Shown here piece by piece: positions 25,380 through 29,845 of a stretch of 32,856 nucleotides of DNA. The stretch's first letter is position 1, and every line of letters starts with the position of its first letter. Under the pieces are notes generated by a model. That model had not been told where the DNA came from, searched no databases, and saw only the letters and a list, made by a program, of their open reading frames with translations. The DNA lies in IMG/VR virus record IMGVR_UViG_2526164692_000012; one strand, given 5' to 3'. The position numbers were made by a program, and so were the translations under genes. The DNA is from a virus. Taxonomy: Duplodnaviria; Heunggongvirae; Uroviricota; Caudoviricetes.

Positions 25380-25883
25380 TTATTGATAGTGTTTTATGTT
25401 CAGATAATGCCCGATGACTTTGTCATGCAGCTCCACCGATTTTGAGAACGACAGCGACTTCCGTCCCAGTCGTGCCAGGTGCTGCCTCAGATTCAGGTTA
25501 TGCCGCTCAATTCGCTGCGTATATCGCTTGCTGATTACGTGCAGCTTTCCCTTCAGGCGGGATTCATACAGCGGCCAGCCATCCGTCATCCATATCACCA
25601 CGTCAAAGGGTGACAGCAGGCTCATAAGACGCCCCAGCGTCGCCATAGTGCGTTCACCGAATACGTGCGCAACAACCGTCTTCCGGAGCCTGTCATACGC
25701 GTAAAACAGCCAGCGCTGGCGCGATTTAGCCCCGACGTATCCCCACTGTTCGTCCATTTCCGCGCAGACGATGACGTCACTGCCCGGCTGTATGCGCGAG
25801 GTTACCGACTGCGGCCTGAGTTTTTTAAATGGCGGAAAATCGTGTTGAGGCCAACGCCCATAATGCGGGCGGTTGCCCGGCAT
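25380..25883 (-). CDS. insB: IS1 InsB' frame, 167 aa (expressed as InsAB' transposase by -1 frameshift)
   Basis: Sequence matches IS1 InsB as recalled; overlaps the insA 3' end in the -1 frame. Confidence 0.9.
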
Positions 25884-26077
25884 CCAACGCCATTCATGGC
25901 CATATCAATGATTTTCTGGTGCGTACCGGGTTGAGAAGCGGTGTAAGTGAACTGCAGTTGCCATGTTTTACGGCAGTGAGAGCAGAGATAGCGCTGATGT
26001 CCGGCGGTGCTTTTGCCGTTACGCACCACCCCGTCAGTAGCTGAACAGGAGGGACAGCTGATAGAAACAGAAGCCAC
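25802..26077 (-). CDS. insA: IS1 InsA, 91 aa
   Basis: [40 protein letters not shown] zinc-finger N-terminus matches IS1 InsA as recalled. Confidence 0.9.
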
Positions 26078-26132
26078 TGGAGCACCTCAAAAACACCATC
26101 ATACACTAAATCAGTAAGTTGGCAGCATCACC

Positions 26133-26282
26133 CGTAGAGCAAAGGATAAAGCTCACCGGAAAGAAGTAAATAACAAAATACTTGCTGACCTTATCAAGGT
26201 TGGTGCATCAGAAGATGTTGCTAAAAATATCATAACAGCCATCGTAAAAGGCGAAGTATTCGCAACAAAAATAACCTACTAA
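26133..26282 (+). pseudogene. 3' remnant of an early-left gene truncated by IS1
   Basis: Reading frame is open from inside IS1 through ...KILADLIKVGASEDVAKNIITAIVKGEVFATKITY-stop, with no start codon outside IS1. Confidence 0.4.
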
Positions 26283-26306
26283 TAAAACCAACATAAGGAA
26301 CCACCC

Positions 26307-26438
26307 ATGATTTACGCAATCGCGGGAGGCGCTCGCATGGGTGCCTTCCAATTAAATGAATCTTTACTTGAACGAATCACCCGTAAATTACGTGACGGAT
26401 GGAAAAGAGTTGAGGTCTTATTATGCGCAATGAAATAG
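26307..26438 (+). CDS. Small hypothetical protein, 43 aa
   Basis: ATG preceded by AAGGA; overlaps the next ORF in the usual phage early-operon fashion. Confidence 0.35.
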   Translation: MIYAIAGGARMGAFQLNESLLERITRKLRDGWKRVEVLLCAMK

Positions 26439-26575
26439 CCATCAATCACCAGATGCTTCGTGCTGCACAGAACAAAGCAGTAATAGCCAGATTTATTGGT
26501 GATTCAAAAATGTGGCTTGAAGCAAATAAAGCGATGAAATCAGCTATCAACCTTCCATGGTATCGCAGGAAATGA
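26423..26575 (+). CDS. Small hypothetical protein, 50 aa
   Basis: Overlapping start/stop arrangement with both neighbours. Confidence 0.3.
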   Translation: MRNEIAINHQMLRAAQNKAVIARFIGDSKMWLEANKAMKSAINLPWYRRK

Positions 26576-26742
26576 GCTTTACAGATAACTGGTCAGACGA
26601 AGAATTCATTCGTCAGATGAAAGAATTATTCGGTAACGAAGGAGATATTCATGTCACTTGCAACCACCGTGAAGGAGAGCAAGTTACAGAGACGCATGTA
26701 CACGCAGCAGGCGTTAATGTATCGCCAGAAGGGAGATCGTGA
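26572..26742 (+). CDS. Small hypothetical protein, 56 aa
   Basis: ATGA overlap with the preceding ORF; acidic. Confidence 0.3.
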   Translation: MSFTDNWSDEEFIRQMKELFGNEGDIHVTCNHREGEQVTETHVHAAGVNVSPEGRS

Positions 26743-26831
26743 AGGTGTTCGCGTCTTTTTAAATGCGGCAAAGACTGAAGTATTAAATCAGCGTTATTTC
26801 CTTGGGCCATGCCCATTCTGAGAACAAACAT

Positions 26832-27437
26832 ATGAGCAAAGAATTTTACGCAAGACTGGCAGCTATTCAGGAGAACTTGAACGCGCCAAAGAATCAGTAC
26901 AACTCATTCGGTAAATATAAATACAGAAGCTGCGAAGACATTCTTGAAGGCGTTAAGCCGTTACTGAATGGCCTGTTTTTATCAATCAGCGATGAAGTTG
27001 TGTTGATTGGTGATCGGTATTACGTGAAAGCCACGGCAACTATTACCGATGGCGAAAACAGTCATACGGCAACCGCTCTTGCACGAGAGGAAGAAAGCAA
27101 GAAAGGAATGGATTCTGCACAAGTTACGGGAGCTACAAGCTCTTATGCACGCAAGTATTGCCTCAATGGTTTGTTCGGCATTGATGATGCGAAAGATGCA
27201 GATACCGACGAGCATAAACATCAGCAGAACGCAGCAGCAAAGCAATCAAAACCATCACCTACACCTGAACAGGTTCTAAAAGCATTCACTGACGCAGCAT
27301 TGCAGAAAAACACCGTGGAAGAGCTTAAACAGGCGTTCGCCAAAGCGTGGAAGATGCTCGAAGGCACACCGGAGCAGCACAAAGCGCAGGACGTTTACAA
27401 CATCAGACGAGACGAATTAGAAGGAGCTGCTGCTTAA
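26832..27437 (+). CDS. erf: Erf-family single-strand annealing recombinase, about 201 aa
   Basis: MSKEFYARLAAIQENLNAPKNQYNSFGKYKYRSCEDILEGVKPLL... matches my recall of P22 Erf very closely through the first ~140 aa. Confidence 0.7.
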   Translation: MSKEFYARLAAIQENLNAPKNQYNSFGKYKYRSCEDILEGVKPLLNGLFLSISDEVVLIGDRYYVKATATITDGENSHTATALAREEESKKGMDSAQVTGATSSYARKYCLNGLFGIDDAKDADTDEHKHQQNAAAKQSKPSPTPEQVLKAFTDAALQKNTVEELKQAFAKAWKMLEGTPEQHKAQDVYNIRRDELEGAAA

Positions 27438-27820
27438 TGGCACATTCGATTACTGTAAGACTAAACAAGCCCGCAAGAGAGTTTCAGGCCGGGGAAAATA
27501 TCGGATTCAACATCCGTGCTGGCGTTCAGTATTACGATCGCCAGACAAAAAAGAAAGAATGGACAAACTACAGCACCGTTGTATTTGCCAAGCCGGGAGC
27601 GCAAGCGGATTACTACCGTAGTGTTCTTGTTGAAGGTGGCATTGTGGAAATTACCGGAGAAAACATCAGGGTTGATGTTTATCAGGGGCAAAATGGTCAA
27701 TCCATCACTCTTGAATTACTGAATGCAAAGATTGGATTTGCAACTTCAGGAAACAGCCCGCAGCAGCAAAGTAGTAACCAGCAGAACACTCCTGTATACG
27801 ACGATTCCATCCCATTCTGA
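27437..27820 (+). CDS. ssb: Phage single-stranded DNA-binding protein (short SSB), 127 aa
   Basis: Start overlaps the erf stop (TAATG); C-terminus ends ...PVYDDSIPF, resembling the acidic SSB tail DDDIPF; Gln/Ser-rich linker before the tail. Confidence 0.6.
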   Translation: MAHSITVRLNKPAREFQAGENIGFNIRAGVQYYDRQTKKKEWTNYSTVVFAKPGAQADYYRSVLVEGGIVEITGENIRVDVYQGQNGQSITLELLNAKIGFATSGNSPQQQSSNQQNTPVYDDSIPF

Positions 27821-27843
27821 TTTAGAAAAATAAGGATTTAATT

Positions 27844-28140
27844 ATGCCAGCGCCTCTGTATGGTGCGGATGACCCGCGCCGCTGTTCCGGCAATTCCGTA
27901 TCGGAGGTGCTGGATAAATTCAGGAAAAACTACGACCTGATAATGTCGCTACCGCAGGAAACGAAAGAGGAAAAGGAATTTCGCCATTGTATATGGCTTG
28001 CAGAGAAAGAAGAACGCGAGCGAATTTACCAGACATCAATCCGACCATTCCGCAAAGCCACATACACCCACTTCCCTGAATATATCGACCCGCGCCTGCG
28101 TAATTACCGCTCACGCTATGGCGCTATCAGTAATGACTGA
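27844..28140 (+). CDS. Hypothetical protein, 98 aa
   Basis: ORF with RBS-like AAGGA upstream; no recognised family. Confidence 0.4.
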   Translation: MPAPLYGADDPRRCSGNSVSEVLDKFRKNYDLIMSLPQETKEEKEFRHCIWLAEKEERERIYQTSIRPFRKATYTHFPEYIDPRLRNYRSRYGAISND

Positions 28141-28150
28141 GGAATTAACA

Positions 28151-28441
28151 ATGAAAACAATGAAGCTAAACATCGACCTCGGAAAATACGTTATTACCGG
28201 AACAAAACACGATCTGATTCTTAGCGAAAGAGGAATTATCAAAGAAGACGAGAATGCAGGGAAAGAAACACTAAGTCGTATCGGTTATTACAGCAAGTTT
28301 GAGCATCTGGTTAAAGAGTTATGCAACCGTGAAATCCTGTTATCTCAGGCGCAGACGCTACAGGATATTCAGCAGCATATCGAGACTTTAGGTGTGTCAC
28401 TTAGCATGGCTATTGACCAGTTCGTGGAGAGTAAATCATGA
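28151..28441 (+). CDS. Hypothetical protein, 96 aa
   Basis: ATG preceded by GAGGA; no recognised family. Confidence 0.45.
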
Positions 28442-28605
28442 GAGGACTTGCATACAATCCCGGCATTCTTCCGGCAGAAATGATTATTCGCCAGCGCGTA
28501 AAGCCAATGCCATCGAGAGAGGAATTGCTTAAGAGAAATTCTTTTCCATCAGTGAATCAAAACAAATATCTGAATGCGATGTGGCGTAAAGGAGGCAACC
28601 AGTGA
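28438..28605 (+). CDS. Hypothetical protein, 55 aa
   Basis: ATGA overlap with the upstream ORF and GTGA-type overlap with the downstream ORF. Confidence 0.3.
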
Positions 28606-29273
28606 GCAAGATTGACTATCAGGCACTGCGTGAGTTAGCAAAACAGGCAACACAGGGCGAATGGGTCGCATTCATTTCGCCGGGCACTGATACATATGCG
28701 GTGCATACGCCGGGGGATGAACGTTGCGGAGACATTATCAAATGGCCTGGCTTTGACGGCCAGAAAAATGCAGAGAACAACGCAGAATTTATCGCAGCTT
28801 TCAACCCTAAAGTAGTGCAGGCACTGCTGGATGAACGGGAAAGAAACCAGCAATATATCAAACGCCGCGACCAGGAGAACGAGGACATTGCGCTAACGGT
28901 AGGGAAGCTGCGTGTTGAGCTTGAGGAGACAAAATCAAAACTCAACGAGCAGCGTAAGTATTACGAAGGTGTTATCTCGGATGGAAGTAAGCGCATAGCA
29001 GAACTGGAAGCACGGGAAATAAAACCAGCCAAAGGTGAAGTTCTTGTCGTTGTTTCTGGTTTTACTGGTTGCGGAAAAAGCGCCATTGCCGGGGAAATAG
29101 AAATCGCGATGAAGGCTATTGGTGTACCGGTTCAGTGGACTAATGGCGATGCGGAAAAGCGCATGACAGGAGCTGACTGGCTGACAGCGATTGAGATGTA
29201 CAAACCAACAGTGCGCATCGTGGAAGTTAATGTGCCACGCGCCGCAGGCATTCGCATCAAAGAGGGTGAGTAG
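28602..29273 (+). CDS. Hypothetical early protein, possibly Ea22-like, 223 aa
   Basis: GTG start preceded by strong SD AAAGGAGG; central coiled-coil segment; family assignment is tentative and from recall. Confidence 0.5.
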
Positions 29274-29635
29274 TGCGTGTGGCATGTATCGGCTTGTTAC
29301 CGTACCCGACTCGTTTTTGGGCTTCTGCGCTAATTGCAAAGCCACATGTCCTGATAGCTGACAACATCATCCCGGCACCAAAGCGCCGCCATACCGGTAT
29401 TGCAGCGGCACGACGAGCAGCAAAGAGACGCAGGAGAGCAAAACGATGAAAAACCGTAAAGCAAAGATTCTGTTAGCTCGCAGAAACGGTGTTGGGGTCT
29501 GGCGATGGGTGAGGATTAGTAACAGACGAGTGAGGTTGATGGGGTGTTGCGGGGTGATGGGTCACAGTTGTTGCAAAAAGCCCAGCGCGGCGCAAAACCG
29601 CTGGAAAAACTACTTGCGGACTAAAGGAGAGTGAT

Positions 29636-29845
29636 ATGGCTATCGCTGCAAGTTACACCATGCATCTCTATTGTGATTGTCGCCAGTGTACGGAAGGTGT
29701 ATATCCAGTGCCAGACTTCGGTGAGTATATCGGTACGTCATGGTCTGGTTGTGCAAAAGAGGCCCGTAAAGACGGGTGGCGAATAAGCAAAGACAAAACA
29801 CGTACTTTTGCGCCCGGGCATAAAGTTTTGAGGATTAACACATGA
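29636..29845 (+). CDS. Small Cys-containing hypothetical protein, 69 aa
   Basis: Strong SD (AAGGAGAG) before the ATG; CxC...C pattern near the N-terminus. Confidence 0.45.
   Translation: MAIAASYTMHLYCDCRQCTEGVYPVPDFGEYIGTSWSGCAKEARKDGWRISKDKTRTFAPGHKVLRINT

Follow-up and report, generated by a model that had tools for sequence, protein, structure and literature searches.

This report concerns a tightly packed array of small genes in a 32,856-nucleotide (nt) stretch of DNA from a tailed virus (Duplodnaviria; Heunggongvirae; Uroviricota; Caudoviricetes; IMG/VR record IMGVR_UViG_2526164692_000012), the whole of which is called the window below. The array consists of nine plus-strand open reading frames (ORFs) between positions 27844 and 30747, and it lies downstream of erf and a gene for an SSB-like protein (Table 1). 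The original prediction, made from the letters alone, had described tightly packed ORFs with overlapping stop and start codons and good ribosome-binding sites after erf and ssb, and the junctions, the Shine-Dalgarno (SD) matches and the family assignments of the two preceding genes (PF04404 and phrog_44) all agree with that description; the array continues, however, for two genes (orf209 and eag) beyond the end that had been assigned to it. From start to end, the junctions are a 10-nt gap before the DUF5405 gene, an ATGA before the DUF2737 gene, a GTGA before the ea22-like gene, a 1-nt overlap before orf58, an ATGA before orf62, a 1-nt spacer before orf69, an ATGA before orf209 and a 96-nt gap before eag, so that five array junctions have overlaps of 1–4 nt. 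An SD-like match lies 4–18 nt upstream of every array start. All nine products match phage PHROGs families (expectation values, E, of 1e-30 to 1e-83) and five match Pfam above the gathering score, and the array is therefore not a chance pattern of open frames.

Table 1. Positions in the window of the array genes and of the neighbouring features discussed in the text.
Feature	Position	Strand	Product, matches and remarks
argW	3298-3372		tRNA-Arg(CCU); tyrosine integrase gene next
IS1 (insA/insB)	25380-26077	-	RefSeq IS1B transposase
erf	26832-27437	+	PF04404 E 2e-44
SSB-like gene	27437-27820	+	phrog_44 E 4e-27; product ends DDSIPF
abc2	27844-28140	+	anti-RecBCD protein, 98 aa; PF11043 E 4.4e-63; phrog_656
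DUF5405 gene	28151-28441	+	96 aa (93 aa from RefSeq start 28160); PF17399 E 1.3e-5, just above gathering score; phrog_154 E 1e-30
DUF2737 gene	28438-28605	+	55 aa, isoelectric point (pI) 11; PF10930 E 9e-32; HK97 gp38 homologue (HK633 annotation note)
ea22-like gene	28602-29273	+	Ead/Ea22-like protein, 223 aa; PF13935 E 4e-45; phrog_250 E 8e-83
C-terminal module of Ea22-like protein	29010-29246	+	residues ~137-215, ~75 aa; Walker A, NGDxEK, hhhhVE.N.PR stretch
orf58	29273-29449	+	58 aa, pI 12, Arg-rich C-terminus, GTG start; phrog_13831 E 8e-41; absent from RefSeq annotation
orf62	29446-29634	+	62 aa, pI 11.7; phrog_1380 E 9e-32; absent from RefSeq annotation
orf69	29636-29845	+	69 aa; phrog_926 E 4e-36; Y-C-D-C-x2-C, ARKDGWRIS.D..R..AP.HK
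orf209	29842-30471	+	209 aa, three-part fusion; PF04447 E 3.5e-42; PF04448 E 5.5e-21
eag	30568-30747	+	zinc-ribbon protein, 59 aa, CPxCG...CxxCG; RefSeq 'Eag protein'; phrog_2945 E 2e-31
Intrinsic terminator	30811-30830	+	8-bp stem, 5 GC pairs, then T run; closes array
torI	30879-31079	+	excisionase / recombination directionality factor; identical to K-12 CPS-53 TorI
attR core	31153-31167	+	copy of final 15 nt of argW; 'pawZ' in K-12

The 5.1 kb around the array is 100% identical to chromosomes of the Escherichia coli O104:H4 outbreak lineage. The window contains, in order, yfdC, argW, a tyrosine integrase gene, a gene for an AT3-SGNH acyltransferase, tailspike and antirepressor genes, late genes, IS1, early-left genes, torI, an attR core and the csc sucrose genes; the late genes are P22-like and lie on the minus strand, the tailspike has a P22 head-binding domain and the antirepressor is of P22 type. 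The prophage is a P22-like one at argW of E. coli O104:H4, with IntS and TorI at opposite ends. When 5426 E. coli genomes were compared, at least 80% of the 5.1-kb stretch was found in only 17 of them and pieces of it in 5318, and the stretch was identical across 16 genomes of the O104:H4 lineage.

The array has the arrangement of the distal part of an operon read from the early-left promoter, pL. Its genes are co-oriented, with no internal promoter or terminator, and the sole strong plus-strand terminator after them lies ahead of xis (torI). No sigma-70-like promoter site was found within 27844–30747 or just upstream, and an Rfam scan of 26000–31700 with permissive filters found no RNA family. 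P22-like phages (P22, Sf6, HK620, HK633, Sf101 and HF4s) have the same order of cIII, kil, erf, ssb, abc2, accessory ORFs and xis (TorI). RefSeq calls the product of the SSB-like gene after erf just a 'hypothetical protein', and its DDSIPF ending is an acidic tail of SSB type.

The original prediction had found no gene of the array recognisable, and the Pfam and PHROGs matches refute this. Most of the products have, as it had held, no demonstrated function, but all fall into catalogued families of phage proteins: the first is Abc2, the 223-residue protein is Ead/Ea22 and the 209-residue protein joins DUF550 to DUF551. By its sequence ORF1 is Abc2, since residues 1–98 align with profile positions 1–97 of 97 in PF11043 at 210 bits (cutoff 25), and it matches the P22 Abc2 chains in PDB entries 8B1T and 8B1U end to end (E 1.8e-57, about 90% identity). 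The P22 structure is of Abc2 bound to RecBCD (PMC9836394), in a RecBCD-Abc2-PpiB complex. The two proteins are nearly equal in length (98 and 97 residues) and both genes lie near erf; the window copy differs by a one-residue insertion and a few substitutions near the C-terminus. From this identity to the P22 protein, the window Abc2 would be expected to bind RecC and modify RecBCD.

The start of the DUF5405 gene is probably at 28151, nine nt before the RefSeq start, since GAGGA lies 7 nt ahead of 28151 and the PHROG alignment is offset by three residues. The next gene, for the DUF2737 protein, is also present in HK633 (below).

The original prediction of a 223-residue coiled-coil protein is borne out by a match of residues 2–136, which comprise the N-terminal segment and the coiled coil, to PF13935 at 154 bits (cutoff 27); the PF13935 signature has been described in just these terms (PMC10834534). 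The gene follows the recombination genes of the pL operon and precedes xis, a position matched in VT2-Sakai, HK633 and phiV10. A PDB sequence search with the protein gave nothing below E 0.36, and likeness to the solved C-terminal domain (CTD) of lambda Ea22 was not found; family membership nevertheless stands, since the CTD is known to vary among family members (PMC10834534). Ea22 is expressed from pL and is pro-lysogenic in lambda and Shiga toxin (Stx) phages (PMC7093339, PMC8614690); a pro-lysogenic effect and a tetramer, which are reported for the lambda and Stx-phage proteins only, might by analogy extend to the window protein.

The C-terminal module of the Ea22-like protein is the one mildly new item of the array. 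Across 31 aligned Ea22 homologues this module is nearly invariant, in contrast to the shuffled N-terminus and coil. Residues 130–223 were compared with 1.84 billion representative proteins (E ≤ 0.001), and at least 448 protein clusters contained the module; their sources range from enterobacteria to Stenotrophomonas, where the member likewise lies in a tight array of small ORFs. The phage early proteins that carry it, at either their C- or their N-terminus, are otherwise unrelated to one another and have 110–620 residues and no Pfam domain, and the module itself has no Pfam family. Of the 150 matches listed, 147 have a Walker A motif (GxxxxGK[ST]); among these, 117 carry the form SG(F/L)TGxGKSA, which sits close to the C-terminus in 104 and to the N-terminus in 11. 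In both alignments made of the module itself the motif does not vary. Six diverse copies, combined into a profile, aligned with residues 29–68 of the E. coli adenosine 5'-phosphosulfate (APS) kinase CysC with an hhalign probability of 95.9% and 35% identity, a comparison that was picked after a weak NCBIfam hint and was not an independent database search. In an AlphaFold model the Walker A motif is preceded by a predicted strand (model residues 17–25), and an invariant I-V-E, a candidate for the Walker B acidic residue, follows the predicted third strand, although the model is not confident enough for it to be positioned beside the P-loop; three strands are predicted, where a complete P-loop core has at least five parallel ones. 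In contrast with APS kinase and other P-loop kinases, the module has only about 75 residues and is without the lid and substrate-binding parts, and its second half is unaligned; because of these differences we do not regard it as a member of a kinase family. We conclude that it is a truncated P-loop-like portable domain that may bind nucleotide. The Ea22 papers examined (PMC10834534, PMC7093339 and PMC8614690) mention no P-loop, Walker motif or ATP, and we suggest only tentatively that the module is an undescribed, widely distributed, portable mini P-loop domain. If it binds nucleotide, the oligomeric Ea22 scaffold could be a nucleotide-sensing switch in the lysis-lysogeny decision, a thought that gains appeal from the presence, four genes downstream, of a gene for a putative dATP/dGTP pyrophosphohydrolase, and the Ea22 family, a proposed target for restraining Stx phage induction, could gain its first biochemical handle.

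Downstream of the ea22-like gene lie three small ORFs, orf58, orf62 and orf69, the first two of which are taken up with the alternatives below. The Arg-rich motif of orf58 looks like arginine-rich RNA-binding peptides. In the virulent phage Av-05, positions 675–806 contain an unannotated 43-codon frame with just the Arg-rich C-terminal half of orf58 (KRRTGIAAARRAAK...), and this C-terminal motif may be the functional core of the protein. In phiV10 (1407–1777 of the aligned stretch) the orf62 homologue is present as a tandem duplicate, p50 and p51, which suggests that a small basic gene of the orf62 type could itself be a duplicating unit. A CC..CC cluster in orf62 was considered as a metal site and rejected, as it is not conserved in other phages. 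The 69-residue product of orf69 had been singled out for its cysteines: three of them (Y-C-D-C-x2-C) are indeed conserved, but the fourth is not. The ARKDGWRIS motif of the protein is basic. Its 45 relatives are enterobacterial wherever the source names the organism, and a fold search with its AlphaFold2 model (predicted local distance difference test, pLDDT, 81.5) gave no informative match.

The orf209 frame is continuous, opens with an ATGA overlap and encodes three parts: an N-terminal 37 residues in common with HK633 gp29, DUF550 at residues 42–137 and DUF551 at residues 144–208. DUF550 scores 143 bits (cutoff 23) over profile positions 1–96 of 97, and DUF551 scores 75.6 bits (cutoff 22). 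The sequence contains the MazG-type acidic pairs E69xxE72 and E82xxD85, and in MazG enzymes such pairs are the metal ligands. In the full-length PF04447 match and these acidic pairs orf209 resembles the MazZ-type enzymes of Z-genome phages; it differs from them in that its DUF550 is flanked by a short N-terminal segment and by DUF551 and comes from a type of phage with ordinary DNA, the annotation of the 11-kb stretch here includes no PurZ or DatZ, and the similarity to the solved S-2L MazZ is marginal only (E 0.41). DUF550 converts dGTP and dATP to the deoxynucleoside monophosphate (dNMP) plus pyrophosphate, an activity demonstrated for the protein of Acinetobacter phage SH-Ab 15497 (PMC12884076), and by homology orf209 probably acts on the dATP/dGTP pool. 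RefSeq splits this continuous 209-codon frame into a 'pseudogene' and a coding sequence with an internal start, and the split looks like a by-product of mosaicism. RefSeq annotation of the array thus has gaps, with two conserved small ORFs missing and a three-part fusion gene divided. The last gene encodes the zinc-ribbon protein that the original prediction had placed further on. It is Eag, which scores 22.7 bits against the Lar restriction-alleviation model PF14354, below the cutoff of 28.6, and in Pfam, NCBIfam and the PDB generally it shows just sub-threshold generic zinc-ribbon similarity.

Pairwise comparison with HK633 shows how the array is assembled. The two share 64% of the 5.1-kb stretch at 97% identity, and abc2, the DUF2737 gene, the Ea22 N-terminus and coil, the ends of the DUF551 protein, eag and torI are common to both. 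Near-identity runs through abc2 and its stop codon and ends right after the next start codon, where the window copy has the DUF5405 gene as an addition; it resumes at the SD site and start of ea22, is lost in the Ea22 N-terminal segment, is back in the coiled coil and is lost again in the C-terminal module, which differs, and in the small ORFs that follow, where orf58, orf62 and orf69 replace HK633 gp32 and gp30. The first ~110 nt of orf209 match (to about codon 37), the middle differs, DUF550 having been swapped in relative to HK633 as the middle of the DUF551 protein, and the match returns from DUF551 through eag. HF4s has the same anchors as the window, yet other inserts, so that the original description of a variable accessory part of a lambdoid (here P22-like) early-left operon holds for both comparisons. 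Sharp joints, placed where genes start and where domains meet, make the array a mosaic, and it illustrates cleanly how modules are exchanged at points of translational coupling. Ea22 proteins whose C-terminal modules are unrelated to one another share the ending ...AAGIRIK(x)GE in every case, and the same SD site and orf58 start come next (window 29240–29275; phiV10 stretch 1200–1234). This joint is probably a recombination site for module exchange.

The array also resembles the exo-xis region of lambda and Stx phages, which lies between the recombination genes and xis, is transcribed from pL and is non-essential. The Ea22 proteins of those phages have, like that of the window, an N-terminal segment, a coiled coil and a variable CTD, and VT2-Sakai has 86%-identical counterparts of orf58, orf62 and orf69 beside ea22. 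In contrast, the orf60a-orf63-orf61-orf73 block of lambda, whose region also carries ea22 and ea8.5, is absent from the window array, the CTD of the window protein is unrelated to the solved lambda Ea22 CTD, and the recombination genes are those for Erf, SSB and Abc2 rather than Exo, Bet and Gam. The CPS-53/KplE1 prophage of K-12 shares with the window the argW site, IntS at the left, an identical TorI at the right and the same attR core, but it has YfdQ (DUF2303) and YfdR (a 5'-deoxynucleotidase) where the window has erf, ssb and abc2. Its yfd genes, to which the original prediction had pointed for comparison, were rejected as homologues of the array genes: YfdT and YfdS gave BLASTP E values of 0.17 and 0.06 against orf209, and only TorI is shared. 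According to PMC10834534, YfdS is a DUF551 protein.

The window copy of this operon has lost its promoter region, a feature that the original prediction had missed and that separates it from HK633 and the other P22-like phages. At 25380–26300 IS1 links the late genes (DUF2560/terminase, on the minus strand) directly to a TolA-like early gene that lacks its 5' part (RefSeq flags the missing N-terminus), and the prophage copy has no repressor, cro, N, replication, nin, Q or lysis genes; the repressor-controlled pL and the N-type antiterminator that precede a pL operon are accordingly not found upstream. Strain 55989 has identical array proteins (the same accessions) behind an intact LexA-family repressor/cro/cII/replication region. 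Because the 55989 array lies behind an intact immunity region, the native promoter context of the array is pL, lost in the O104:H4 copy.

We consider it very probable that the array is the 'ea' region, the distal, non-essential accessory end of the operon that a P22-like prophage reads from its early-left promoter, pL. In an intact relative, a pL transcript would run through cIII-kil-erf-ssb-abc2 and then eight further ORFs to the terminator at 30811–30830, with stop/start overlaps that would couple translation. Abc2, to judge from P22, where this is known, and the ~90% identity of the window protein, would bind RecC and re-tool RecBCD so that phage Erf/SSB recombination can act, and the remaining genes would be interchangeable modules: an Ea22 coiled coil with a P-loop-like module, a DUF550-DUF551 fusion, Eag and five small proteins (three of them very basic). 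The gene set was built by recombination at conserved joints, namely ribosome-binding sites, gene starts and domain borders, and an IS1-associated deletion has taken pL, N and the repressor, replication and lysis genes in this genome. The O104:H4 array is most likely a remnant, silent or expressed just by read-through. Several points weigh against parts of this interpretation. 'Accessory module' describes position and variability, and not mechanism, for six of the nine products; the biochemical activities and the expression state assigned to the array are predicted ones, and its silence is deduced solely from the loss of the promoter region. O104:H4 and 55989 have unlike cIII-kil segments (their alignment begins only at query position 473), so the prophage is not a simple deletion derivative of that in 55989. 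Confidence in the AlphaFold model of the Ea22 module, strand-helix-strand-helix-strand, is low (pLDDT 62.7), and the DUF5405 family was not given its PHROG label, 'replication initiation protein', as this is not traceable to evidence. The region is an ordinary, already catalogued kind of temperate-phage accessory block, and the array as a whole is of little consequence, being a mosaic accessory region of the usual sort, left stranded in a defective prophage of the 2011 outbreak lineage.

Other accounts of all or part of the array were weighed against this one. Positions 29273–29449 and 29446–29634 might not be genes at all but conserved sequence that separates ea22 from orf69 as a non-coding spacer or an RNA element, as could be read from the empty Prokaryotic Genome Annotation Pipeline (PGAP) annotation of 29274–29635 in O104:H4 and 55989, the odd composition of the products (rich in Arg, Trp and Cys, with a pI of about 12), the conservation of orf58 nucleotides above that of its neighbours, the finding that all 8 changed orf58 codons in Bas106 are non-synonymous, and the survival in Av-05 of only the C-terminal half in frame. 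Alignment with VT2-Sakai, phiV10 and Bas106 followed by translation argues instead for coding. The insertions and deletions are multiples of three, the orf58 frame surviving a 21-nt deletion and a 6-nt insertion in other phages; orf62, conserved at its ends and variable in its middle, is open in all three, stop-free even in Bas106 with 33 changed codons; and orf58 differs from phiV10 by 1, 2 and 8 changes at codon positions 1, 2 and 3, a bias toward the third position. Both ORFs have SD sites and ATGA-type coupling, both have full-length PHROG matches (E 1e-32 to 1e-41) and are annotated in phiV10 and Bas106 (orf58 is PhiV10p49 and Bas106_0024), and the permissive Rfam scan was empty here. We therefore hold with moderate confidence that orf58 and orf62 are probably coding, conserved as ORFs in the phages compared, and that a non-coding element is improbable.

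Two further proposals concern what the gene products do. Among the uncharacterised ORFs (DUF5405, DUF2737, orf58, orf62, orf69, Eag or the Ea22 C-terminal module), at least one might specifically inhibit a host defence system or serve host takeover, which would be compatible with the array being an accessory region. These ORFs adjoin a known counter-defence gene, abc2, in a region that is highly variable among otherwise syntenic phages; screens of accessory regions have yielded counter-defence genes, with Abc2 as a control (bioRxiv 10.1101/2023.04.06.535777); and three array proteins combine small size with a strongly basic pI of 11–12. Against this, searches of Pfam, NCBIfam, the PDB and predicted folds found no sequence or fold similarity to characterised inhibitors: NCBIfam gave just sub-threshold matches, PDB sequence searches with the DUF5405 protein and Eag returned nothing significant, the PADLOC-DB defence profiles matched none of ten proteins at E ≤ 0.01, and Eag reaches the Lar model only below threshold. 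The array families are not named in the accessory-gene screen papers at the terms searched, and the RefSeq protein accessions of the array were found in none of the papers searched. Beyond Abc2, the anti-defence content that had been suggested thus draws support from none of these results, and we regard it as rather unlikely. It is more improbable still, to a degree that places it below even a non-coding element, that the array has been domesticated, that is, retained and expressed in the defective prophage with one product helping the host, as in the case of CPS-53 genes linked to stress resistance. Nine frames are intact though the prophage is defective, the stretch does not vary in 16 genomes of the lineage, and the DUF551 protein YfdS has been linked to oxidative-stress resistance (as cited in PMC10834534). 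O104:H4 is, however, a recent clone, and the identity is therefore uninformative on selection; the native promoter region has been lost, and neither the array nor the sequence just ahead of it showed a promoter-like site; and YfdS and orf209 share a domain family only, their pairwise similarity not being significant.

Apart from the array, which we continue to read as the accessory end of a pL operon, two features of the prophage ends were observed. Between the integrase and tailspike genes, a low-GC patch (0.33–0.35) at 4908–6830 encodes a 640-residue AT3 + SGNH acyltransferase, and phages of the Sf6 type have an O-antigen-modifying moron at the matching position. The final 30 nt of argW (3343–3372) are divided around torI: TTGCAGGTTCGATTCC occurs at 30844–30859, just upstream of the gene, and CTGCAGGGGACACCA, the attR core, 74 nt downstream of it. 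The 16-mer upstream of torI also precedes torI in K-12 CPS-53, HK633 and 55989, so that torI is placed as if it were inside a copy of the tRNA 3' end.

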